In this document: one piece after another, positions 2,059 to 22,873 of the stretch
Numbering within the stretch: the first letter of the stretch is position 1
Layout of the letters: each line of letters opens with the position of its first letter
Source: Mobula hypostoma
Taxonomy: Eukaryota
Assembly (NCBI RefSeq): GCF_963921235.1
Contig: NC_086108.1
Coordinates: 27,964,001-28,028,000, forward strand
DNA: 64,000 bases
Direction of reading: 5' to 3'
Program-made: the position numbers and the translations under genes
The notes under the pieces: model-generated
What the model saw: the letters and a program-made list of their open reading frames with translations, nothing else
What the model was told of the DNA's origin: nothing
Databases searched by the model: none

Positions 2059-3853
2059 GGGTAGGACCACTGAAGGATAGAATGGAAAACATTTGCTTGT
2101 ATGCAGAGGATGCGGGCGAGGTCCTTAAAGAGTGCTTTACATTAGTATTTACCAAGGAGAAGGACCTGGAGGATGGGGAGATCAGTAGATCAGCCTCAAG
2201 TGTATTGATATGCTCTGGTTTTTTGAGGTAAAGGAGGTGGTAGTGTTGGGTCTTTTAATAAGAATTAAGGTAGATAAGCCCCAGTGTCTGATAGAACGTA
2301 CCTCAGGTTATTGTGAGAGGCAAGAGAAGAGATTGCTGCATCCTTGACCAAAATTTCATGTCCCCTCTGGCCACAGGCAAGATCCTGGAGGACTGGTGAT
2401 CAGCTAATGTTTTTCCTTTATTCAAGAAGGGAACCTGGGATAATCCTGGAAACTACAAACCAGTGACTCTCCCATCAGAGGTATGGAAATTGTTGCGGAG
2501 CATACTTAGGGATAGGATTGGAAAAGCATGGCCTAATTAGGGAGAGCCAGCATGGCTTTGTGTGGACTTTCCAAAAGAAAGGTCATGTACACTTATAATA
2601 GGATCATCCATATTTTATTAATCATTTGGTTCAGAATGTGACTTATTTTGTAAGGCAAGTCATGTCTTACTAACTTGGTTGAGATTTTGCCAAGGTGACA
2701 AAGGTGACTGATGTTGTTTACATGGATTTTAGTAAGGTATTTGAGGCCTTATCCAGAAGATTAAGATGCATGGGATCCATGGCGAATTGGCCATTTGGAT
2801 TCAGAACTGGCCTGCCCATAGCAGACATAGAGTAGTGGTAAAAGGGACTTATTCTAGCTGGAGGTTTTTGATTAGTGGTGTTCCACAGGGATCTGTCTGG
2901 AACCTCTGCTGTTTGTGATGTATATAAATCATCTGGATGAAAATATAGATGGGTGAGTTATTAAGATTGTAGATTATATGAAAATAGGTGGTGTTGTAGA
3001 TAGTGTAGAAGACTGGCAAAGAATACAGTGGTACATAGATCATTTGCAGATGGAGTTTAAACTGATCAAATGTGAACTGTTGCACCTTGGTAGGTCAAAT
3101 GTAGAGACAGTACACTGTTAAGGACAAGATCTTGTACACTGTTGCTAAACAGAGGGAGCTTGATGTCTAAGTTCACAGCTCCCTGAAAGTGGCTACAGAG
3201 GTTGATAAGATGGTTCAGAAATTGTATGGCATGCTTGCCTTTACAGTATTAGTTAAGGCACTGAGTTCAAATGTCAGGAATTTAGGTTGCAGCTTTAAAA
3301 AAAACTCCAGTTAGGTCACATCTGGAGTATTGCATACAGTTTTGGTCACCCCATTATAAAAAGGAAGTTGAGGCTTTGGAGAAGGTGCAGAAGAGGTTTA
3401 CCAGCATGCCGTCTGGATTACAGGGCTGTGTTACACCGAGAGGTTAGAAAACTTGGGGTGTTTTCTCTTGAGTGGCGGAAGCTGAGGAGAGATCTATCTG
3501 ATAAAAGTTTATAAGATTATGAGAGGCATAAATAGAGTAGACAGACAGTATCTTCTTCCCAGGGTTGAAATGTTAAAGACCAGGGAGCATACAGTTAAGG
3601 TGAAAGGAGGTCATCTAAAAGTAAATGAGAGGGCAATTTTTTTTTTACACAGGCAGTGGTGGGCGCCTGGTATGTGCTGCCTAGGGTAGAGGCAGAAACA
3701 CTGGAGACTTTTAATAGAAGTTTAGATAGGTGCATGAATGTGAGGGAAATGGAGGGATATGGACATTGTGTAGGCAGAAGAGATTAGTTTAGTTACTGTT
3801 TGATTACTAATTTAATTGGTTCTGAGCCTGTTCCTGTGCTCTACTGTTCTATG

Positions 3854-4674
3854 ATAGAAGATATACCTTATTAATCCAGAGAGAAATTTGATTTTGTTAC
3901 AGCCGCACCAACCAAGAATAGAGCGTAAATATAGCAATACAGAAAACCCCAACAGTCAAACAACAAAATGCAAAACTATGCCAGGTGGAAAATAAGTCCA
4001 GGACCAGTCTATTGGCTCAGGGTGTCTGACCCTCCAAGGGAGGAGCTGCAAGTTCGATGGCCACAGGCAGGAACGACCTCCCGTGCCGCCAAGTGTTGTA
4101 TCACGGTGGAATATGGCCGATGTCCAACAGTAAAAAGCTCAATATCCAGTCTGCAAACACATTCCTCGATCTTAATATACCCTGGATTGCACCATCAGTT
4201 GTTAGCCAGATCAGTAAGCACCCAACTCCTTTACGCTTACCGCTCTCAGTGCACTTCCGGTCAGGCGGAATGGTATTACCCACCGAACTCCTCTTCTCCA
4301 AAAGTCTCTGTTGCTTCGACCCGGTCCTCTTTCCTCGGCTTTGTGATCCCCCTCTGCATCCTCTGTGTGCTTTCCTCCGGATTTCAGCAGGGGTGTCTGC
4401 CACTCTGTTCGCTAAGCCGGCCTGAATTTGCTGGTCCGTGAAATACACAATGCGACCTTGCTTCAGTCCCGCGTGTCGGGATGTAACCATTTCCAGTGCT
4501 AAAGAAAACCCAAATAAAACTCTCTCTACCAGCATGTCAGAGAGGGTGCCGCTTCGACGTGTTACAGTGAGAAAAAAATACAAAAAATAATGCAAATTAA
4601 AAGTAAGAAGAGGAAAGTAAAAGAATAGATCGGAACGGCTGTACCAGGCTGCATGCACGACCAGCGCATGCGCA
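3854..4674 (-). mobile_element. Internally deleted, non-autonomous Rex1/Babar-like LINE derivative
   Basis: Minus strand encodes RRKAHRGCRGG (pre-endonuclease leader) close to RSFLPVAI (ORF C-terminus); tail aatttctctctggattaataaggtat resembles the Rex1-type tail at 17916-17945. Confidence 0.65.
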
Positions 4675-4675
4675 C

Positions 4676-7600
4676 TATATTGGAATGGTTGGGGGGTGGG
4701 AATCAAATTAAAGAGGCTAGGTGTGGGAGGTTAGTTCACAACAGAGGGATGGGAACCAGTGCAGAGAGACAGAGGGGTGTAAAGTGAGCGTAGAAGCAAA
4801 AAGTACAAAGGGGAAAAGTAAAAGTGGCAGGCCGACAAATCCAGGGCAAGCATTAAAAAGGGCTAAGAGAGTTGTAAAAGAGCGCCTGAAGGCTTTATGT
4901 GTCAATGCAAGGAGCATTCGTAATAAGGTGGATGAATTGAAAGTGCAGATTGTTATTAATGATTATGATATAGTTGGGATCACAGAGACATGGCTCCAGG
5001 GTGACCAGGGATGGGAGCTCAACATTCAGGGATATTCAATATTCAGGAGGGATAGACATGAAGGAAGGGGAGGTGGGGTGGCGTTGCTGGTTAAAAAAGA
5101 GATTAACGCAATAGAAAGGAAGGACATAAGCCGGGAAGATGTGGAATCGATATGGGTAGAGCTGCATAACACTAAGGGGCAGAAGACGCTGGTGGGAGTT
5201 GTGTACAGGCCACCTAACAGTAGTAGTGAGGTCGGAGATGGTACTAAACAGGAAATTAGAAATGTGAGCAATAAAGGAACAGCAGTTATAATGGGTGACT
5301 TCAATCTACATGTAGACTGGGTGAACCAAATTGGTAAAGGTGCTGAGGAAGAGGATTTCTTGGAATGTATGCGGGATGGTTTTTTGAACCAACATGTCAA
5401 GGAACCGACTAGAGAGCAGGCTATTCTGGACTGGGTTTTGAGCAATGAGGAAGGGTTAATTAGCGATCTTGTCGTGAGAGGCCCCTTGGGTAAGAGTGAC
5501 CATAATATGGTGGAATTCTTCATTAAGATGGAGAGTGACATAGTTAATTCAGAAACAAAGGTTCTGAACTTAAAGAGGGGTAACTTTGAAGGTATGAGTC
5601 GTGAATTAGCTAAGATAGACTGGCAAATGACACTTAAAGGATTGACGGTGGATATGCAATGGCAGGCATTTAAAGGTTGCATGGATGAACTACAACAATT
5701 GTTCATCCCAGTTTGGCAAAAGAATAAATCAAGGAAGGTAGTGCACCCGTGGCTGACAAGAGAAATTAGGGATAGTATCAATTCCAAAGAAGTAGCATAC
5801 AAATTAGCCAGAGAAAGTGGCTCACCTGAGGACTGGGAGAAATTCAGAGTTCAGCAGAGGAGGACAAAGGGCTTAATTAGGAAGGGGAAAAAAGATTATG
5901 AGAGAAAACTGGCAGAGAACATAAAAACGGACTGTAAAAGCTTTTATAGATATGTAAAAAGGAAAAGACTGATAAAGACAAATGTAGGTCCCCTGCAGAC
6001 AGAAACAGGTGAATTGATTATGGGGAGCAAGGACATGTCAGACCAATTGAATAATTACTTTGGTTCTGTCTTCACTAAGGAGGACATAAATAATCTTCCA
6101 GAAATAGTAAGGGACAGAGGGTCCAGTGAGATGGAGGAACTGAGTGAAATACATGTTAGTAGGGAAGTGGTGTTAGGTAAATTGAAGGGATTGAAGGCAG
6201 ATAAATCCCCAGGGCCAGATGGTCTGCATCCCAGAGTGCTTAAGGAAGTAGCCCAAGAAATAGTGGATGCATTAGTGATAATTTTTCAAAACTCGTTAGA
6301 TTCTGGACTAGTTCCTGAGGATTGGAGGGTGGCTAATGTAACCCCACTTTTTAAAAAAGGAGGGAGAGAGAAACCGGGGAATTATAGGCCGGTTAGCCTA
6401 ACGTCGGTGGTGGGGAAACTGCTGGAGTCAGTTATCAAGGATGTGATAACAGCACATTTGGAAAGCGGTGAAATGATCGGACAAAGTCAGCATGGATTTG
6501 TGAAAGGAAAATCATGTCTGACGAATCTCATAGAATTTTTTGAGGATGTAACTAGTAGAGTGGATAGGGGAGAACCAGTGGAAGTGGTATATTTGGATTT
6601 TCAAAAGGCTTTTGACAAGGTCCCACACAGGAGATTAGTGTGCAAACTTAAAGCACACGGTATTGGGGGTAAGGTATTGGTGTGGGTGGAGAATTGGTTA
6701 GCAGGCAGGAAGCAAAGAGTGGGAATAAACGGGACCTTTTCAGAATGGCAGGCGGTGACTAGTGGGGTACCGCAAGGCTCAGTGCTGGGACCACAGTTGT
6801 TTACAATATATATTAATGACTTGGATGAGGGAATTAAATGCAGCATCTCCAAGTTTGCGGATGACACGAAGCTGGGTGGCAGTGTTAGCAGTGAGGAGGA
6901 TGCTAAGAGGATGCAGGGTGACTTGGATAGGTTGGGTGAGTGGGCAAACTCATGGCAGATGCAATTTAATGTGGATAAATGTGAAGTTATCCACTTTGGT
7001 GGCAAAAATAGGAAAACAGATTATTATCTGAATGGTGGCCGATTAGGAAAAGGGGAGGTGCAACGAGACCTGGGCGTCATTATACACCAGTCATTGAAAG
7101 TGGGCATGCAGGTACAGCAGGCGGTGAAAAAGGCGAACGGTATGCTGGCATTTATAGCGAGAGGATTCGAGTACAGGAGCAGGGAGGTACTACTGCAGTT
7201 GTACAAGGCCTTGGTGAGACCACACCTGGAGTATTGTGTGCAGTTTTGGTCCCCTAATCTGAGGAAAGACATCTTTGCCATAGAGGGAGTACAAAGAAGG
7301 TTCACCAGATTGATTCCTGGGATGGCAGGTCTTTCATATGAAGAAAGACTGGATGAACTGGGCTTGTACTCGTTGGAATTTAGAAGATTGAGGGGGGATC
7401 TGATTGAAACGTATAAGATCCTAAAGGGATTGGACAGGCTAGATGCGGGAAGATTGTTCCCGATGTTGGGGAGGTCCAGAACGAGGGGTCACAGTTTGAG
7501 GATAGAGGGGAAGCCTTTTAGGACCGAGATTAGGAATGAATCTGTGGAATTCTCTGCCACAGCAAACTGTTGAGGCCGGTTCATTGGCTGTGTTTAAGAG

Positions 7601-8204: not shown

Positions 8205-11200
8205 TGTGGCGATGTCACGTGCAATGATGTGTCGGTACATGGTTGGACAGAGCACAGAGCTTGCGCGGGATTACCAGAATGTTCCAGCATGTGGCTGGGT
8301 TAAGACGTGTTTGTTTATTACTGTAAATAAAAGTTCTCTAATACTTCCAGAATATGATTCTTTACTGTTAACCCACGGTACGTTTAAACAGAAGTAACAT
8401 AACATGGTGTCAGAACTGGTTCTGGAAGAATAATATGGGAGAATCGAAGATAATCGAAAAAAGAGAAGAAGAAAAAAGTTCGAACTGTAAACAGTAAAAT
8501 GGAATGTTTACAACCCCCACCAAAACTTCAGCTGACTGGCAAAGTAGATGAGAATTGGAGGATATTCAAGCAACAGTTTGAACTGTACTTAAAGGCGATC
8601 GATTATGAAGAAAAATCAGAAAAAACCAAAGCTGCGCTTTTGATCCATGTAATCAGGAATGATGCAGTAGAGTTATATATTAATTTTGCCTTTGAAGATG
8701 GAGATAATTTCAATTTAAAATCGATAATGACAGATTTGGAGTATTTTGTATACCTAAGCAGAATTTAACTTACGAGCGATATAAATTCTTCACATGTGCA
8801 CAGAGACGCTGAAACTATTGATCAGTATGTTACTGAGTTAAGAAAGCGTAGTAGAACATGCAAGTTTGGATTGCTCACGGACTCTCTCATTAAAGATAGA
8901 CTTGTTTGTGGCATTTGAGATAATGCTCTGAGAGAAAGGCTGTTGAGAGAGCAAGATTTAAATTTTGAAAAAGCTTTGGCATTTTGCAAAGCTTCTGAGA
9001 CCATGACATTGCAGGCTGAAGCACTTTTTGTCGAAAACTTCAATGTAAATGCTGTGAAAAAGCACGAATACATCAAGAAATATAATAATACACCAACGAA
9101 ACTGACAGAGAGCAAGATGGCATTGGAACGAAAAAAGTTATATGATTGCTGTGCGCGGGAACATCGCCCAAATCAGTGTCCCGCATGTGGTAAAATTTGT
9201 AATGGCTGCGGTAAAATTAGTCATTTTTCACGCTGTTGTAAAAGCAGAAAGAAGGAAAATAAAATGAAACAAGTAAATGCTGTGTTTGAAAATGAACATG
9301 AAGAATTTTACATAGATGTGCTTTGTGAAAATAAACCAAGTAACAATGACTGGACTATTCTGTTGCAAGTGTTTCAAAACAATATTCTGTTTAAACCTGA
9401 TACTGGAGCGCAAGTAAATGTTCTTGCAGAATTTGAGTTTAATGCTTTCAAGCCAAGACCGAAGTTACATCAGACAAATAAAAAGTGACTGGGTATTCAG
9501 GTGCAGACATTCCAGTTAAAGAAACATGCTTGGCAAAGGTATCACACAAAAATATTGTGCACACACTTTCATTTGTGGTCCTGCCAAAAAATGTACAGTC
9601 AATTCTGGGTTTATCTGCCTGTGAAAGACTTAATTTGGTGAAAAGAATTTTAGTCCTGGATAGCAACACAAAGTCAGAATACAGTGATTTGATGAAAGAG
9701 TATGAAGACTTGTTTAAAGGGCTTGGTTATCTTCCAGCAGAGCACTCAATTAAAATTGACAATACAGTGCAATCCATAATACATCCACGCAGAAAAGTAC
9801 CTTTTGCATTACGTCATCAACTGAAAACAGAGCTAGATGGAATGGAAAGGCTAGGAGTCATTAAAAAAATGGTGAACCAACTGAACAGGTCAATTCGCTT
9901 GTCATTGTTGATAAGAAAAATGGAAAACTGAGGATTTGTTTAGATCCAAGAGACCTGAATCGGGCCACTAAAAGAGAGCATTTCAAATTGCCTACTCATG
10001 AAGAAATTATGTCACAGTTTGCTAATGCAAAGTATTTTAGTAAATTTGATGCATCCTCCGGATTCTGGCAACTTAAGTTAGATGAACCGAGTTTAAAATT
10101 GTGTACCTTTAACACTGCTGTTGCCTGATACTGTTTTCTTAGGCTTCCTTTGAGAATTGCATCAGCTCCTGAAGTGTACCATAAAACCATTCACATGCTA
10201 TATGAGCACATTGAGGGCATAGATGCATCCATGGATAATATTATTATTTGGGGATCAACTAAACAAGAGCACGATGCCAGGCTCAGACAAGTCTTTGAGG
10301 CAACACGCAAGGCTAACCTGAAATTGAATAAAGACAAATGTCAGCTAGGAGTGACTGAACTTAAATTTGTGGGTGATACCATCAGCAAAGAGGGTGTGCG
10401 TCCTGATCCATCGAAGATTTCTGCTACTGAGAACATGCCAAGACCGCAATGTGAAATGGATGTTCAGAGGTTTATGGGAATGGTTAACTATATGGGAAAA
10501 TTAATACCCAATCTCTCGGAACAGCTTGCTCCATTGAGGTAGCTAACAGAAAAGAGAAATGAATGAAGCTAGAACCATGAACAGGAGAAGGCATGGAAAA
10601 ATCCCAAGAAAGTACTCACAAAAGAACCTGTGTTGAAATTTTATGATGCTGAGAGACCCATCAAAATCTCATGTGGTGCATCTCAATTGGGCTTAGAGGC
10701 CGTATTATTCCAGAAACATGATCAGGAATAGCTACCACTGGCATATGCACCTTGTTCATTATCTGATCCAGAAACAAGGTATGCCCACATTGAAAAAGAA
10801 TTGCTCAGCATTATGTTTGCTTGTGAGAGATTTCATCAGCTTGTGTCAGGGTAATCTATTGATGTTGAAACCGATCATAAGCCGTTGATTGCATTGTTTA
10901 ACAAACTTTTAAGTGGCTGTCCTTTGCGAATTCAGCGAATGATGATCAAATTGCAAAGATATGCACTGAAAGTGTCATACACACCTGGAATTCATGCACA
11001 TGGCTGAGACACGTTCCAGAGCTGTGGATCCAACAACAAAAGACAGTCACAGGAACATTATTGATGTTCAGGTATTCATTGATATGGTCATGGAAACTGT
11101 ACCTGATGCTCCCAAAAAGTTGGAACTGCTGCGTCTGGAAACAGAGAAGGACAAAATTCTCAGTCAGGTAATACAAGTGGTGTTGGATGGATGGCCAGAT

Positions 11201-12622
11201 AATAGGCACCACCGTACCTCAGTAGTACAAGATTATTGGAACCACAGATCAGAACTGTCTGTTATGGGTGCGATTTTTTACAAAGGTAGTAGAATTGTTA
11301 TACCTAAAAGTCTCCGTAAAGAAATTCTTGGTAAAATTCATGAAGGCCACCAAGGCATTGAAAAATATAAGAGAAGGGCATGGGAAGTGATGTTTTGGCC
11401 CAGGGTGAATCAAGAGATTGCAGGATTGGTGTCTTCTTGTCAAATATACCTTAAATACCAACCTAGCAACCCTAAGGAACCACTGCATCCACACCTGAAT
11501 CCTCAGAGACCTTATCAGAAGGTAGGTGTTGATCTTTTTATTAATAACAACAAAGACTATCTATTAATAAATGATTACTATTCATTGTATCCTGAAGTGT
11601 GTTGTCTGGGCAGAACGATTGCAGAAAATGTAATTACATCCATGAAATCATTTTTTTCAAGACATGGTGTACCTGATGAAGTTTTCACAGACAATGGTCC
11701 ACAAATCAGTAGTGAATGCAAGAAACACTTTGCTCGTGAATGGGGCTTTGTTCATACAACATCTAGTCTACTTTTCCCTCAGTCTAATGGATTAGTTGAG
11801 AAATCGGTAGGAATTGTCAAGAAACTGATGCACAAAGCAAAAGATAGTGGAAGTGATTTTTATAAAACCTTGTCAGCCTACCGAAGTACTCCACTTGAAT
11901 GTGGATTTTCGCCTGCTCAGCTCTTGACAGGACGACGTTTGAGATCTAATCTGCCAATGGACGAGAGCCTTCTGAGAACAGAGGAAAGTGAACAAGTGAA
12001 AAGGTGGAAAGATGAACGCAAAGCAGAGCAGAAAATATACTTTGATAGACGTTTTCATCCATTACCTGAACTGCACCAAGGAGATGAAGTAAGAATACAA
12101 GACAAAATGAACACATGGACACAGGAAGTCACAGTACTTGAAGAAGTACAACCCAGATCATACATGGTCTGAACAGAAGAAGGAGCAGTGTTAAGAAGAA
12201 ATCGCAAAGACCTCAAGAAAGAGCCAACTTCAGAGATTCAGTTAATGGATGCAGACGAGACAAAACATGTAAATAGTAACAAGGAAACACAAGATCTGTG
12301 TGCACCACTTAGGAGGTCTACTCATGTTCGTAAACCCTCAGAGAGACTGATAGAGACTTGTTGAATTATGTATTTGCTTTGATTAATGTTTTTAATTGTT
12401 TTTCTTTTTAAGGAAAGGAAGATGTGGTGATATCACTTGCAAAGATGTGCCGGTACATGATTGGACAGAGTACTGAGCATGCGCGGGATTGCCAGAATGT
12501 TCCATCACGTGGCTGGGTTAAGACATGCTTGTTTATTACTGTAAATAAAAGTTCTCTAATTCTTCCAGAATATGATTCTTTACTGTTAACCCATGGTACG
12601 TTTAAACAGAAGTAATGTAACA
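8205..12622 (+). mobile_element. Full-length decayed Ty3/Gypsy LTR retrotransposon (Mag-like)
   Basis: 200-bp TG..CA LTRs at 8205-8404 and 12423-12622, 5-bp TSD ctgtt, PBS tggtgtcagaactgg (8405-8419, tRNA-Leu-like), PPT aaggaaaggaaga before the 3' LTR. Confidence 0.97.
8499..12365 (+). pseudogene. Gypsy gag-pol with stops and frameshifts (gag, Zn knuckle, protease, RT, RNase H, integrase)
   Basis: ENWRIFKQQFELYL; CNGCGKISHFSRCC; DTGAQVNV; ETDHKPL; IHEGHQGIEK; TDNGPQ; PQSNGLVEK; integrase follows RT/RNase H. Confidence 0.95.
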
Positions 12623-13369
12623 CTGTTTCCACTCAGGTTTTGTTGTTTCTAAGGTGACTAATAAAGCCAATGTGGAAACTACAGACTCCAACACAGATGG
12701 GGCAATGGGGCATGTTGTTTGTGATGTAATGTGCTTCTTCCACAATATGCAGAGCTTCCATATATTCTGGTTATATGTCTTCAAGGTTCTCAATTCTACC
12801 TGAAAAATCCTTATGATCTGTTATAGGCCAGAGACTTCCAGGAGTAGTTGTGGATGTTACAATGAAGTTCCAAGATATATAAACAAAACTATCTTCTGTA
12901 TCTTAGAGCTATTTCTTAGTGAAGAGGACAGCAGTGGTTAAATCAACTGACACCTCAGTGTCTTTGGCCACTTGAGAAAAGGAGACTTGAAGAACAATCC
13001 CAATTCTAAAAGGATGTAGGGGTTCATACACCAGTGACTGAACTGGAGCAGTTCCTTTCATCTCAGATGCAGTGTTGGGACTATTTCTCTCATCAGCTCA
13101 AGTGGAGGGGTTCTTTACTTCAACCATTGCGTGATTAATGGACTCATTCAGTCAGGGATTGGGATCAGAGGGATTCCTTATATCAATGTTGTGTTGGTGG
13201 GTTTATTGTTTTAGTATTTAGGGATGCATGGGTGTAAAAGCTCCCAGTGACTGAGGTAAAGTTCTTCCTTTGACATTGGCTGGGGGAGAGGGGGTGGGAC
13301 ATGATGCCATTCTATCAGTTATTTCATCTCTGATGTGTTTGTGAAGCATTTCTTGAAGTTGGAATACAT

Positions 13370-17956: not shown

Positions 17957-18825
17957 AGTCTTACAACTGATATAGAAGGAAGGATGATCCTAGTAACATA
18001 TGAAAGAGTTTCTTTTATTGTATTACGTTATTAAGGAGATAGGGCAAAGGATGAAGTGTTCAGTTCCTCAATGACTTGGCAGATTATCCCTAGACCAAGA
18101 CTGCTCATTGAAGAATGTATTGAGGCTCTGTACATCAGGAGCACACAGGAGCCCTGTGGATGTGGTAGAAGGAGGCACCACCTCACTACCTACATGAGTC
18201 AATTACCTCTTCTGTCTTGGAAGGACCTGCAGTTCTCACATCAATCATCTCCAAACCTTGAACAATATTTAATCATAAGATAGTGATTTATTTGTGCCTT
18301 CTATTAAGGTTGATGCATTTACTGCTCACAATGTTGTCGCTTCTACGTAGGGTAAACAGGCTTAGAATGGGTGGTCTCTCTGCAGAGCACCTCATTCAAG
18401 CTGCAGCCTCCTGACACTTTAATTCTCTGACCTTTTCCTGCTCCAACCAGTTTTCCCCTAATGATACTTTTGCAGCTAGGCTGAACGCAAATTTAAAGAA
18501 CATTTTATCTACTGACAACACATTAGTTTGAGACCACTAGATCCAGCTCTAAATTCAATAATTTCAGATAGCCTGCAAATCCAGCTTTTGCATTTTCAGC
18601 ACTGGGATTTGCTTCTAGTAGTTTCTTTTGCTTCTTAGATTTACAGTGCCATCTTCCTTTTTTTTTAAATCTCTTTACTGTTCGCTTTCACTTTCATCGA
18701 TTTCCCTTTGCCCTCTCCCCTACCCACCCACCATCCCACTCACCTGTCTTCACCTATCAGCTGCCTGTTTATGCTCCTTCCCCTCCCCTTCTCCTTCTTA
18801 TTCTGGCTTCTTCCCCCTTCCTTTC

Positions 18826-21356
18826 TGTTATGTTTTGTAATTCCAAAACATAAAACTAATGCAAAGGAAGAGATGAAGAGGCCAAAATGAGAGTCTAACT
18901 TAGGTTTTCCTTTAAGCAAGGCACACGCATATTATGTGATGGTGTGATAATATCCACTATTTACATACTTTTACAGGTACCCACAATGCAGTACGTAAAT
19001 AACAAAGAATGTGTAATTAAACAATATATTTACAATATTACTCAAACATTACTGAAATATTAAATACACAACACTCCTTCCTACTTAGCTATAAACTCCA
19101 ACACAATACAGAGTACATCTCAACTATATACACACTATACTATTTAATACAACAACTATACAGACATCCACAATATATAGTAAATTTTAACTTGTCCCAT
19201 TCAGGCCTAAATATTTAATTGCTGTGCTTTCTTTTTATCCTTGTGTAATAATGTCTTTCCTGACAAGGAGGATCACTCTGCTTAGCAGCTGAGAGTTGAG
19301 GCTGTGAAACAATCTCAGGTTCTGAGGCCTCCTCCATGGTTGTTGACTCTGAGGATGCAGAAAGTGTCTCTGACAGCTCTGGACATCTCCTTTTCTCTAT
19401 GGATCTGCTTCGATCTTTGCTTCTCCGCGCTCCCCCCCCGTCACGACTTTTTTTGCAGTCTTTATCTCGCTTCCGATCCCTTTCTTTTACTTTCTCACTT
19501 ACCCCTCTTTCACAACTTTCTCGTTCTCACTCACAATCTTTTCTCCTTTTCGACTTGTCTTTCTTTTTCTCTCCTTCCCTCCTCTTCTAGTTTCTTGTGA
19601 GTATCCCTGAATTTGCTAATTTCTCAAGAAATTAGGTCAAATTTGTCCTTTTCTATTTGCAGCACAGTTACGGCATTCTCCTCTTTCTTTTCCTTTTTCT
19701 TCTTTCTAGAATGTGCAACTTGTCTTGGGAAGGTGCATTTAGTTCATTGGAGTATTCTCTTATAAATCTTTCTATTGCTCCCGTTACAATCTGGTCTCTC
19801 CTCTTGGTTTCCGCATCCACAATATCATCTGATGAATTCTCTGTTTTCATATCTCTATTGACTCCTTTCTTTTTGACCCTCCATTCATCCATCTGGGCTT
19901 TGGTCTTTGCATCTGCTTTTACAAGAAGCTTTTTGTCTCCCACTTGAAGTTCATGCAATATCCTTAATGCACGCAGAGTAGATTCTGGTTCCTTATACTC
20001 ACAAAAGCCAAACATTTCCTACTTTTCTGAAGCTCCTTGACCTCTCATCCAGCTTAAATTCAAGCCACATTCCGCAAGTATGCCTGATGAACATATCAGA
20101 AGCTTTCTCAGATATGTTGCCAACAAAAAGGTTTGTAGATGTACGACTGCTTACATCACTTTCATGATTCCTTTGAGCAGCATGGTCAAATTAGGTCCAA
20201 ATTGTTTTCCAACCAAGGGCACAAAGGTTGGCAGCAACACCTGTTTGCCTTCTGTTGGGCAACAGTTCATGGCTTCAGCATAGAGACAGTTGGGGTAACA
20301 TCCAGCACCTTTCTTAATTTGCTTTCAACTGACTTTATTGCAGGGGATGGTGAATGGATCTCCAATCAAGTCGTCATTGTCTCAGTCAATCATGACTCCA
20401 TAACACTGGTCCTCATGGTTTTACCACATACAAGCCCCATATGGCTTGTATTTTACTGTTATGAATGTCATTCCCACAGGAGTTATCTTTTCTCCAGTAT
20501 AAGTTCTTAACTGGAGATCTGCAGGTTTTAGTTCAGTATCTTTGAAATGCCTTTCAAACTCATTTCGTTGGAATGACTGAAACGGCTGAGCCAGTGTCCA
20601 ATTCCACTTTAATTAATTTGCCATTCATTTCTGGTGTAAGTTATGTTGCTTGTCTTCTGTTATAGAACTGACAATGCTCAGACATCTTCTTCAATTCAGC
20701 CACATATGCTGAAATGGACTCCCCTTCCTTTTGATTTGTCTTATGAAATCTAACACATTCTGCAATCAGCAATGGTTTCAGTTCTAAATATTCTTGTATT
20801 ACTTTCACAATATTAGCAAATCTCATTTTGGATAGTTTGGTCAGAGCTGGTAAATTTATCTTTTGTATAATCAAATGCATCAGTCCTTCCAATGTAGCCA
20901 ACTATTTCTGCTCTTTTTTCATGATTATTATCACCCGATACTCACTGTTTATAAACCTGTAAATTCTTCCATTTTCTGCCTTTATGTTTACTTAATTGTC
21001 TTTTCTTTTGTGAAGAAAATGTGCTGTGCTTTCTTTCACTCGAACGTCGCGCTACCTTTCAACAGATAGGTAATTGTCTCAGGTTTGTTTAAAAAGTACC
21101 TCGTCGCCATTGTTATGTTTCACAACTCCAAAACATAAACTTAATTTAAAGGAAAAGACTCAGAGTCTAAAGTGCAAGTCTAAGTTAGTTTTTACTTTAA
21201 GCAAGGTGCACACTTATCACGTGGCAGCATGATGTTGTGTGCCATTTACACACTTTTACTGATAAACTGCATGTATTATGTAAACAACAAAGAATGCTTA
21301 ATCAAACAATATACTTACAACATTACTCAGATTTTACTGATATTAAATACACAATA
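18826..21356 (-). mobile_element. Internally deleted Gypsy LTR element carrying host cDNA
   Basis: LTRs 18826-19073 and 21111-21356; TSD ctttc (18821-25, 21357-61); PBS TGGCGACGAGG (21109-21099, tRNA-Ser-like); PPT next to 19073; gag remnant KPLLIAECVRFHKTNQKEGESISAYVAELKK; protease ELDTGSAVSV. Confidence 0.92.
19386..20240 (-). pseudogene. RBM25: Processed (intronless) RBM25 fragment: RRM plus start of the RE/RD-rich region
   Basis: FVGNISEKASDM..FGFCEYKEPESTLRALRILHELQVGDKKLLVKADAKTKAQMDEW..ETKRRDQ..IREYSNELNAPSQ..EISKFRDTHKKLEEE matches vertebrate RBM25 as I recall it; stops and frameshifts present. Confidence 0.93.
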
Positions 21357-22873
21357 CTTTCCAGTCCTAATAAAGGGTCTCGTCCAAAACATTGTCCGTT
21401 TTTCCCTCTCCATAGATGCTGCCTGGCCTGCTGAGCTCCAACATATTGTTTGCGAGCCTCTGTCAAAACCATGCTGAGTCAATTGCACAACAATACCAGT
21501 TTATCCTCTTTTACACTAAATCTGAGATCCCGTGAATTGAATTTTAATGTTATCAGTGGGAAAGTGCCAGGTAAAGAGCATGTAATGCCAGTACTTACTG
21601 AAGCCTACACTCTGAAGAGTTTGTCCTTTTTGATGCTAGGTGATTTAAACTTTTGCAATGTAATGAGTGTTTGCACATTTGGTGGGACCATTTTTAACTG
21701 CCACCCTTTGTCCCTGGATGCCTGTCGTTTCCTAACATGGCAAAGACATGACCTCACCACAGCTGACAATGATGCAGAGGGAAAAGTGAGCGCTGTGTCG
21801 AGGAACGAAGAAATGAACCTCATTACTCTGATGCTTCAAGCATATGCGAGCAAGGTGACCTCTGCATCCACTGCCTACCCTTGCCTGAAATGATTGAATT
21901 AGGGAGTCACAATGCTTTTGCAGTCCCGGTGTGCAATCCATCTCCTGGTTTAACTCCTGCATGTCTGAACATTTCCTTGAAGCAGCCTTCCAATCATGCC
22001 CAGCTTCCTATGTCTAAGGTACACTCTGGGCATGATTGGGGGAAAGGATTGTCACTGTCTGAGGATTTCAAGATATATTGTTAATTCAGTTTTGTGGTCC
22101 AATTTATGCCCTATTTTTTAAACTAGTAAGCAGTCCTCACTAATTAAATGGCTGGACAGAGTTGACTCAGCAATAAACCCAATGCACTCTGCAGGTTTTT
22201 GACTTGAACAACTCAATACAATGCAGTTCTGACTTTTTTACAACTTCCTTGGTTTGCATATTCAAAGCCTTCCAAATTCAATCTCTAGTAAATGGAGGAA
22301 GTGCCAACCCATCATAAAACTGCTATTAGTTTAATTCTCTGTTGCCCAGTTGTCATTTTAGGACTGATTTAGATTATGTAGATAATCTGCATGCAGATAA
22401 TACCAAGTGCGATGTTAAAGCTGTTTTATGCTTTCTGGATAGCATGGTAATAAATCTTTTACATGAGTGTAATAATATAAAATGAGCTCATTGGAAATAA
22501 GTGACTTCAGTAGTGATTCAAATTCCAATTAGTAGGGTGGCAGATAATGGATTCTGTAATTTAGATGTCTGAATATGACTTGATTGGTTCTTCTGTCATC
22601 TCTGTGTTGAAAGGTTGTTGTAGCTCCAAGCCTGCACAGATGCATATGAGTTGGTGCCCCTATAAAGCACAGGAGGAGGCCTGAACTTCCTGAGGGGCTT
22701 GTTTTCAGAAACAATGATGTTCAGGTGAGATTATAGGTAGTAAATTACTGCCCAAGGATACAAGAACAGGACAGGAAAATAGGAACAGTAATAGACTACT
22801 AAATCCCTCTATTAAGAATTAAGAATTGAAAATACACGTGGACTAAGATGTTAACTGTCCTGTGCTATCACCA

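Follow-up and report, generated by a model that had tools for sequence, protein, structure and literature searches.

The minus strand of positions 18826-21356 in the window, the whole 64,000-nt stretch of Mobula hypostoma DNA analysed here, carries a decayed LTR element of 2.5 kb, delineated by reading of the window, a repeat search and blastn. A direct repeat (18826-19077 and 21111-21362) marks the pair of LTRs, which are about 250 bp long and 75.6% identical over 250 nt in blastn. On the sense strand, gag and protease remnants are followed by about 0.9 kb of cDNA of the host rbm25 gene and then by a Gypsy tail. In sense-strand order, with identities of the rbm25 exons given relative to the parental contig (C1), the features are:

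21357..21361, no strand: TSD, 5' side, GAAAG, read from the sequence; same 5-mer at 18821-18825
21111..21356, minus: 5' LTR, 246 bp, begins TA, ends CA
21096..21109, minus: PBS-like motif TGGCGACGAGGTAC, 2 nt past the 5' LTR, read from the sequence
20666..21095, minus: leader and gag remnant, 74-87% identical to the matching part of other copies
20653..20665, minus: site of a private deletion of about 490 bp; relative L069 has 500 bp between the stretches matching 20666 and 20652
20298..20652, minus: protease remnant (DTGS motif) and PR-RT linker, 81% identical to L069 1938-2320
20291..20297, minus: remnant of the 5' switch point, TACCCCA, decayed from the TGCCACA common to Gypsy and host exon 2
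20288..20290, minus: last 3 nt (ACT) of rbm25 exon 2; host exon 2 ends in TGCCACAACT, followed by gt
20241..20287, minus: rbm25 exon 3, the 48-nt exon VSMLYTMNRCPTEGKQ with a 1-nt deletion here; 88% to C1:99832633-99832586, ag/gt flanked
20073..20240, minus: rbm25 exon 4, 83% to C1:99829160-99828990
20015..20072, minus: rbm25 exon 5 (RRM part), 84% to C1:99827250-99827200
19854..20014, minus: rbm25 exon 6 (RRM part), 91% to C1:99824413-99824254
19678..19853, minus: rbm25 exon 7, 89% to C1:99819430-99819254
19594..19677, minus: rbm25 exon 8, 87% over 68 nt to C1:99813184-99813117
19399..19593, minus: rbm25 exon 9 (RE/RD-rich), internal deletions, 71-72% to C1:99810687-99810352, part of the repeat region absent
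19386..19398, minus: start of rbm25 exon 10, 13 nt here versus 30 nt in better copies
19087..19385, minus: Gypsy tail, end of the pol coding region after integrase (CPELSE...) and 3' untranslated part
19074..19086, minus: polypurine tract AAGTAGGAAGGAG, adjoining the 3' LTR, read from the sequence
18826..19073, minus: 3' LTR, 248 bp, TG...CA
18821..18825, no strand: TSD, 3' side, GAAAG, read from the sequence

Two direct LTRs and a 5-bp TSD, as expected of a Ty3/Gypsy-type LTR element, are thus present, the TA start of the 5' LTR being decayed. The first-pass annotation had listed both LTRs, the TSD, a PBS and a PPT; the LTRs and the GAAAG on both sides are as it described, and PBS- and PPT-like motifs can be seen, although TGGCGACGAGG, which starts with TGG 2 nt past the 5' LTR, is PBS-like only, as read from the sequence. 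It had also judged these LTRs to be more diverged than those at 8205/12423, which agrees with the measured identities (75.6% versus 88%). The other Gypsy element of the window (8205-12642) has no relation at the DNA level to the element at 18826-21356.

Among the gag and protease fragments of the window copy, no Pfam domain scored above threshold, including in three frames read through stops; the gag remnant gave a weak PNMA match (E 0.009, below the cut-off). The identity of these fragments therefore rests on relatives. The suspected gag/protease remnants hold up on this basis: L069 has an 81% identical counterpart of 20652-20291, holding an ORF (L069:1800-2273) that scores as RVP with 21.6 bits (cut-off 20.7), and 20298..20652 is the last Gypsy-only stretch before the cargo. 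At the site of the deletion of about 490 bp, which is also seen relative to chimeric copies and not only relative to L069, relatives contain the remainder of gag, including a CCHC knuckle (a motif visible in the L069 translation), and the start of protease.

L069 also reveals what the rbm25 sequence has displaced. Between the same two junction points, this relative encodes RVT_1, RT_RNaseH_2 (41.4 bits, cut-off 29.8) and rve (36.8 bits, cut-off 32.6), giving the domain order RVP, RVT_1, RT_RNaseH_2/RT_RNaseH, rve, and K02A2.6-like polyproteins, which match its integrase, have this Pfam set too. Exactly between its junctions, the chimera lacks about 3.3 kb of pol, so the proposed replacement of pol is borne out. 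The tail starting with CPELSE..., previously taken as the Gypsy 3' end, comes after the integrase end (...RHIDQLRRAE...) in pol-bearing copies. Of the order PR-RT-RNase H-IN, the window copy retains PR remnants only, while L069 has all parts, which makes the window copy a non-autonomous derivative rather than an autonomous member. The pol-bearing copies examined are themselves all decayed, truncated or interrupted.

The cargo derives from rbm25. A 116-aa open fragment (20018-19671) matches RBM25 proteins (220 of 340 candidates reach E<=0.001, the best with E 8.6e-48 and 83% identity), and the cargo DNA aligns to consecutive host rbm25 exons with 72-91% identity and no intron sequence between them. 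We located the parental gene on another contig (G000:C1:~99791418-99840642, ~99.79-99.84 Mb) with the C-terminal 135 aa of gar RBM25 as query; a PWI-family search was discarded as a route to the parent, having returned other genes. Ten parental exons were mapped; all have ag/gt flanks, and together they read as a single open frame beginning at the ATG. Cargo sequence extends from the final 3-10 nt of exon 2 into exon 10, of which it includes the first ~20-29 nt, and its eight exon-exon joints are devoid of intron sequence. The initial description of a spliced, intron-free RBM25 segment without poly(A) is thus upheld, with eight introns missing relative to a multi-exon parent. Of the limits first assigned (20240 to 19386), the 3' limit at 19386 stands; the 5' limit lies about 50 bp further upstream, at 20290, or at up to 20297 if the 7 shared nt are counted, as a start at 20240 omits the 48-nt exon 3 together with the 3 nt from exon 2. 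The cargo comprises the RRM and RE/RD-rich parts only, in a broken frame; the exons for PWI stayed behind at the parental locus.

In the window sequence, there is no poly(A) in or beside the cargo and no TSD around the rbm25 cDNA itself, the two hallmarks that the first-pass annotation had proposed to look for as signs of LINE insertion. The window does harbor LINEs with endonuclease and RT (ORF 4721-7573), which in principle could have made a processed rbm25 pseudogene that landed in a Gypsy copy and was duplicated later. Such an origin is hard to reconcile, however, with a cargo that is truncated inside exons at both ends and flanked by neither poly(A) nor a TSD, with the loss of ~3.3 kb of pol exactly between the junctions, or with different TSDs across copies (GAAAG, TCACC, ATAAC), and we regard its probability as negligible.

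Both fusion points lie in mid-exon, each within an identical stretch common to the host mRNA and Gypsy: the 7-nt TGCCACA, shared by host exon 2 and Gypsy, at the 5' switch point, and the 9-nt purine stretch GAGAAGAAA, shared by host exon 10 and the end of Gypsy pol, at the 3' switch point:

5' junction: host ...CTCCTGCCACAACT, followed by GTCTCC; Gypsy ...GATGATGCCACAGCAGTG; chimera ...GATGATGCCACAACTGTCTCC
3' junction: host GGAGAAGAAAAGG; Gypsy AGAGAAGAAAGATGTCC; chimera GGAGAAGAAAGATGTCC

For random junction pairs, P=0.0005 for sharing 7 or more nucleotides and P=0.00004 for sharing 9 or more. The purine-rich 3' microhomology, suggested earlier from the window copy, is a 9-nt stretch common to exon 10 and Gypsy across copies; later deletions have shortened the window version, in which the last 4 nt of 19386..19398 are what remains of GAGAAGAAA. 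Of 60 copies that were chosen by a 25-mer across the 5' junction (17 of the 60 are truncated before the tail), 59 have their homology to rbm25 beginning at cDNA position 162, which is 10 nt short of the exon 2 end. The RBM25 part retrieved 19 copies, of which 18 cross the 5' junction within a single alignment and seven cross the 3' junction. The 5' fusion is in frame (...LDDAT-T-VSMLYTM...), while the Gypsy tail beyond the 3' junction is out of the pol frame. No public protein spanning the 5' junction was found among proteins of 106-338 aa, a result that does not bear on other species.

The position of the 5' junction also speaks to a different route of capture. In acute transforming retroviruses, transduced oncogenes represent host mRNA that replaces viral genes, so that a helper is needed; the 3' junction arises by non-homologous template switching, and the classical 5' junction by read-through and splicing or by DNA deletion. 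By analogy, a Gypsy element residing in an rbm25 intron might have been transcribed into the gene and spliced from a cryptic donor to an rbm25 acceptor, with template switching responsible for the 3' junction only. On an incomplete exon map, this scenario looked attractive, as homology began at the first base of an exon in 14 of 20 loci and Gypsy has a GT at the matching spot. However, that map had missed the 50-nt exon 2, the last 10 nt of which (TGCCACAACT) are present in the chimera, placing the junction 3-10 nt inside exon 2, within the 7-nt shared stretch and not at a splice acceptor. The junction codon is ACT in 11 of 21 chimeric copies versus GCA in 16 of 22 pol-type copies, and among exact matches, pol-type copies have ACT in no instance versus 517 for the GCA form; the missed exon 2 accounts for the ACT. 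In addition, the rbm25 introns lack any remnant of this Gypsy. We therefore dropped splice-mediated capture, which we now consider very improbable. The chimera resembles transduced oncogenes in carrying host mRNA sequence in place of element genes, in needing a helper and in its 3' junction by a non-homologous template switch, but differs in its mid-exon 5' junction within a 7-nt shared stretch.

The chimera is an amplified family, as a search proposed in the first-pass annotation reveals. Allowing up to 3 mismatches, the 5' junction 25-mer occurs at 1,330 genomic places (682+648), while the reversed-sequence control yielded 0. As only 16 of 26 chimeric copies, taken from the best-scoring matches of RBM25 and protease searches, pass this filter, and as the window copy itself has 4 mismatches, the total is nearer 2,000. 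Within its Gypsy family, the chimera accounts for about one quarter of the copies (206 chimeric versus 517 pol-type matches to exact junction 20-mers; seven of 29 loci chimeric). The dispersal of the 1,330 places over many contigs and both strands, together with 12-23% pairwise divergence and TSDs that differ between copies (GAAAG, TCACC, ATAAC), leaves hardly any room for an assembly artefact or segmental duplication instead of a transposed family. By a crude method applied to old copies, LTR pairs were recovered for only 17 of 87, and of the 10 copies that could be scored for a TSD, only three had a clean 5/5 one.

Pairwise distances in the protease region, all from one search, are 0.141 within pol-type copies, 0.148 within chimeric copies and 0.147 between them; by this sequence measure, the chimera and the pol-bearing copies are of the same age. 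None of 87 sampled copies is intact over exons 3-7, and singleton changes are spread over the codon positions in the ratio 153/155/147, a pattern by which we judge the decay of the cargo to be neutral; the earlier impression of an old pseudogene is thereby supported.

Based on direct observations (the anatomy of the element, the parental gene and the exons mapped in it, both fusion points with their shared stretches, the number of copies and their decay), we consider it highly probable that the element is a decayed non-autonomous member of a Ty3/Gypsy-type family, present at 1,330 or more places, in which spliced rbm25 sequence replaces RT, RNase H and integrase; two template switches and copying in trans are both likely components of its history. 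Mid-exon fusions in shared stretches point to template switching during reverse transcription. An rbm25 mRNA would have been packaged together with Gypsy RNA, and minus-strand synthesis would have copied the Gypsy 3' end before jumping to rbm25 exon 10 at GAGAAGAAA, running back through the spliced rbm25 exons and returning to Gypsy RNA at TGCCACA, just after protease. Having kept LTRs, PBS, PPT, gag and protease, the product could have been mobilized by enzymes of the family. It spread in a star-like burst, concurrent with that of the pol-bearing copies, and shorter variants, produced by internal deletions in the purine-rich cargo, spread as well. The window copy represents one such insertion, now dead. 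The microhomology fits RNA-level template switching and DNA-level microhomology-mediated joining of two cDNAs alike. That pol-bearing relatives mobilized the chimera in trans is likely from the shared ends and equal age; we infer it in this way because the pol-bearing copies examined are all decayed, truncated or interrupted.

Compatible with this origin by template switching, the RBM25 piece may have been an asset. Several hundred bases, initially identical to the mRNA of an essential splicing factor and fused in frame to Gag-PR, could have meant that small-RNA silencing of the element would hit rbm25, or the RRM in a Gag-PR-RBM25 fusion could have aided RNA handling. In line with this idea, the 5' fusion is in frame, every defined cargo class among the 60 copies chosen by the 5' junction (17 of them truncated before the tail) reaches at least exon 7 and thus spans the RRM exons, and the copy number is far above the figures given, in the portions of the literature available, for published LTR-mediated retrocopies (Bs1, 1-5; crocodilian, 6-9). 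However, an in-frame fusion is expected in one third of cases by chance, the chimera amounts to only about a quarter of the family (206 versus 517; 7/29 loci) and is no different in age from pol-type copies, the tail is out of the pol frame past the 3' junction, and variants lacking the RE-rich part spread too. No excess at third positions is seen among shared polymorphisms (8/8/10 by codon position), most of which are CpG pairs, although this test has low power. We consider such a benefit unlikely; if real, a silencing conflict or RRM aid would explain how an LTR element with a captured gene could attain thousands of copies in a vertebrate genome.

The LTR-mediated retrocopies are a known class, to which this family adds a new and very large member. 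It shares with them an intron-free mRNA segment, microsimilarity at the switch points, lack of poly(A) and of a TSD around the segment, and dispersed copies with the same switch points. As far as the available text of Tan et al. (2016, Genome Res, PMC5131818) describes them, such retrocopies act as non-autonomous ("pseudo") LTR retrotransposons in animals and, like the chimera, carry a partial intron-free host mRNA in place of internal ORF sequence, keep both LTRs, lack poly(A), can be retroposed again and show microsimilarity at both switch points (median 6 bp, compared to 7 and 9 here). The present family differs in scale and age, since the secondary copies in that account are few while at least 1,330 places share a junction here; cartilaginous fish, the group of the present host, are not among the animals named in that text. 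Maize Bs1, as summarized there, likewise has host exon fragments in an LTR element with the same switch points in all copies, but combines three parental genes in 1-5 copies, as opposed to a single parental gene and more than a thousand copies here. Crocodilian ERVs with captured KIT-ligand or nectin3 mRNA (nine and six copies; Chong et al. 2014, Retrovirology, PMC4299795) are also vertebrate LTR elements that propagate a spliced host mRNA as their own part; according to the portion of that report available, they are endogenous retroviruses with complete captured ORFs under purifying selection, whereas the present element is Gypsy-type, its gene is truncated, and no constraint was detected (0/87 intact). 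Literature searches for an RBM25-carrying LTR retrotransposon turned up no paper on this family.

The family constitutes a natural record of a reverse transcriptase shuffling host exons into mobile elements, in which both switch points can be placed to the base and the donor gene survives for comparison. While published LTR-mediated captures, to the extent covered by the source texts, number one to a few tens of copies, a single capture has here yielded over a thousand RRM-coding fragments in a vertebrate genome. Such copies can be annotated as RBM25-like genes, misleading homology searches and gene counts; at the same time, they provide a large pool of essential-gene-related sequence, useful for studies of small-RNA cross-talk. 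The host gene also allows the copies to be calibrated as a neutral clock, as 18 of the 20 near-fixed differences to host rbm25 lie at third codon positions.

The sequence from 21356 to 18826 on the minus strand is a compact LTR element, and the limits assigned to it by the first-pass annotation, 18826..21356, are exact.

Structural features of the element (LTRs located by direct-repeat search)
21356-21111, minus strand: 5′ LTR, starting with TA
19073-18826, minus strand: 3′ LTR, with termini TG...CA
21361-21357 and 18825-18821: target duplication GAAAG, directly outside both element ends
Onset 2 nt past the 5′ LTR, minus strand: motif starting with TGG
19086-19074, minus strand: purine run adjoining the 3′ LTR

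The LTRs are 75.6% identical over 250 nt, compared with 88% for the pair at 8205 and 12423, in keeping with the earlier remark that they are the more diverged. The latter pair belongs to a second Gypsy-type element (8205-12642, plus strand) with integrase remnants (Integrase_H2C2); no DNA similarity was found when it was compared with the RBM25-carrying element. An uninterrupted 950-aa frame at 4721-7573 (plus strand) contains Exo_endo_phos and RVT_1 domains and represents a LINE ORF2. The window copy lacks ~490 bp that its relatives hold between 20666 and 20652, and its own gag and protease gave no usable Pfam match, their reading frames being too degraded.

The longest open fragment of the cargo (20018-19671, 116 aa) matches RBM25 proteins (220 of 340 candidates at E ≤ 0.001), best among them an RBM25-like model from the shark Heptranchias perlo (E 8.6e-48, 83% identity). 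Using the C-terminal 135 aa of gar RBM25, a region missing from the element, we found the parental rbm25 on another contig of the same genome (match at G000:C1:99791418-99802480) and retrieved 120 kb of surrounding DNA. Element DNA aligned to this gene as successive exons, at 72-91% identity and with no sequence in between; the host exon borders are ag/gt flanked throughout. Exon 2 (50 nt, C1:99838488-99838439) was located via the conserved PMIPV motif, and host cDNA including it forms a single open frame starting at ATG. The cargo begins within exon 2, of which it keeps the terminal 3-10 nt, and stops 20-29 nt into exon 10; the parent search and intron count proposed at first pass thus yield a donor on C1 and eight introns, ~28 kb in total, missing from the cargo. 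In the window, the cargo runs from 20290 (or 20297) to 19386; its end had been placed correctly, but the start had been set at 20240, one 48-nt exon plus 3 nt too late. This exon (VSMLYTMNRCPTEGKQ; C1:99832633-99832586, within locus L031), situated between those coding ...MTPATT and VLVPT..., occurs in the H. perlo model P0001 and in the captured mRNA but is lacking in gar RBM25 (P0014), one indication that the genome is probably that of a cartilaginous fish.

With the protease stretch 20662-20290 as query, 4,418 first-look candidates were obtained and 29 further loci retrieved. Similarity continued into RBM25 in seven, while in 22 it ended at window ~20283-20307; when 14 of these 22 pol-type loci were extended, the element tail reappeared 1.4-5.5 kb downstream in ten. 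The pol-bearing relative L069 encodes, in order, a protease (RVP, 21.6 bits; cut-off 20.7), RVT_1 fragments, RT_RNaseH_2 (41.4; 29.8) and an integrase core (36.8; 32.6), the integrase resembling K02A2.6-like polyproteins of the same domain set (31 proteins, E ≤ 1e-10). In pol-bearing copies, the counterpart of the window's CPELSE... tail lies immediately after the end of integrase (...RHIDQLRRAE...). The L069 domains and the position of this tail argue that the chimera derives from a Ty3/Gypsy-type family in which ~3.3 kb of RT-RNase H-integrase was replaced. The earlier reading of RBM25 in place of pol agrees with L069-type relatives, which hold RT, RNase H and integrase before the same tail. 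At about 2700-5900 of the fetched locus L073, a LINE (Exo_endo_phos_2 and RVT_1, 79 bits) is nested in a pol-type copy.

Sequences at the two fusion points
5′ junction, pol-type copies: ...GATGATGCCACA GCA GTGTTCAAGG
5′ junction, chimeric copies: ...GATGATGCCACA ACT GTCTCCATGC
5′ junction, host exon 2/exon 3: ...CTCCTGCCACA ACT/GTCTCCATGC
3′ junction, host exon 10: ...GAAAAGGAGAAGAAAAGGGAT
3′ junction, pol-type copies: ...TTAGAGAAGAAAGATGTCC
3′ junction, chimeric copies: ...GAAAAGGAGAAGAAAGATGTCC

Pol-type, chimeric and host sequences have the exact stretch TGCCACA in common at the 5′ junction and GAGAAGAAA at the 3′ junction. Following TGCCACA, 11 of 21 chimeric loci have the triplet ACT and 16 of 22 pol-type loci have GCA (3 of 46 unclear). 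Among 200,000 random Gypsy/cDNA position pairings, the chance of a shared run was 0.0005 for at least 7 nt and 0.00004 for at least 9 nt. Before exon 2 was known, homology seemed to begin at exactly the first base of an exon in 14 of 20 loci, as if the 5′ junction had been made by splicing from a Gypsy copy within an rbm25 intron, in the style of retroviral oncogene transduction. We rejected such splice capture once exon 2 was found: the junction ACT is simply the end of that exon, pol-type copies with ACT at the junction codon gave 0 exact matches vs 517 for the GCA form, and no remnant of this Gypsy was found in the rbm25 introns. Family-LTR matches were likewise not found inside the gene; the opposite strand upstream of exon 1 carries two solo-LTR-like matches, at distances of 36 kb (L035, G000:C1:99876647-99876890) and 66 kb (L038, 99906405-99906636). 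Both junctions are mid-exon and show the pattern of microsimilarity-guided template switching described by Tan et al. (2016, PMC5131818) for LTR-mediated retroposition.

The Gag-PR frame continues through the 5′ fusion, but the tail past the 3′ junction is out of the pol frame. The window copy retains 13 nt of exon 10 vs 30, its 3′ junction having been shortened by later deletions, so the purine motif seen there is a remnant; the purine-rich 3′ microhomology suggested earlier does exist, as the purine stretch common to Gypsy and host. In an RBM25-free deletion derivative of the same family (L041, L076, L080), the tail is fused to the zinc-finger region of integrase (...CQHIQK), and this fusion falls at the purine-rich site also used in the chimera (AGAAGAAAGA); the site therefore looks like a recurrent breakpoint.

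The chimera has been amplified as a family. The RBM25 part alone returned 2,812 first-look candidates, and all 39 scored matches other than the window's own were 77-84% identical. The search for identical junctions elsewhere, suggested at first pass, placed a chimera-specific 25-mer across the 5′ junction (≤3 mismatches) at 682 + 648 = 1,330 sites, with 0 for the reversed control. As this filter passes only 16 of 26 chimeric copies obtained in other searches, and misses the window copy with its 4 mismatches, the true number is nearer 2,000. Exact junction 20-mers (206 chimeric vs 517 pol-type) agree with the 7/29 in the protease sample, and the chimera thus makes up about a quarter of its Gypsy family.

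Host mRNAs carried by LTR elements are a known kind. Tan et al. (2016, PMC5131818) describe LTR-mediated retrocopies acting as non-autonomous LTR elements and cite maize Bs1, which differs in having one to five copies, and Chong et al. (2014, PMC4299795) report crocodilian ERVs with KIT-ligand (9 copies) and nectin3 (6 insertions). Literature searches pairing RBM25 with retrotransposons found nothing relevant. The RBM25 chimera is unusual in its scale and in that each switch point can be placed at base level, with the donor gene available.

Forms of the cargo among 60 copies picked by the 5′ junction
Exon 10 junction reached: 12/60
Terminal purine run of exon 7 joined straight to the tail: 17/60
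Other forms, many with an end near cDNA position 1005: 13/60
Truncated ahead of the tail: 17/60
Unclear: 1/60

Cargo deletion variants were themselves amplified, and the RE-rich part was therefore dispensable. Over exons 3-7, 87 copies (26 + 60 + window) have a mean identity to host cDNA of 86.3% (range 77.8-90.0) and a mean pairwise distance of 0.187 (minimum 0.116), in a star-like pattern. None of the 87 is intact over these exons, the window copy included, as its earlier description as pseudogenised had it. Singleton changes are spread evenly over codon positions 1/2/3 (153/155/147), and no sign of coding constraint on the cargo was found in this low-power set. The host base is kept by <20% of copies in 20 columns, 18 of them third codon positions, consistent with one capture, after which the host gene drifted synonymously. 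Protease-region distances from the same search are 0.141 within pol-type, 0.148 within chimeric and 0.147 between the groups; this equal divergence indicates joint spread of the two, in agreement with mobilisation in trans. LTR pairs, scorable in 17 of the 87 copies, have a median identity of 75.6%; target duplications match 5/5 in 3 of 10 scorable copies and differ in sequence among copies. At an assumed ~1e-9 substitutions per site per year and ~0.1 per copy, the family age would be of the order of 100 million years. Among the high-frequency variable columns in exons 3-7 of the 87 copies, nearly all form adjacent C/T and G/A pairs. The pairs reflect recurrent CpG decay, an expected outcome if the copies were methylated in the germ line.
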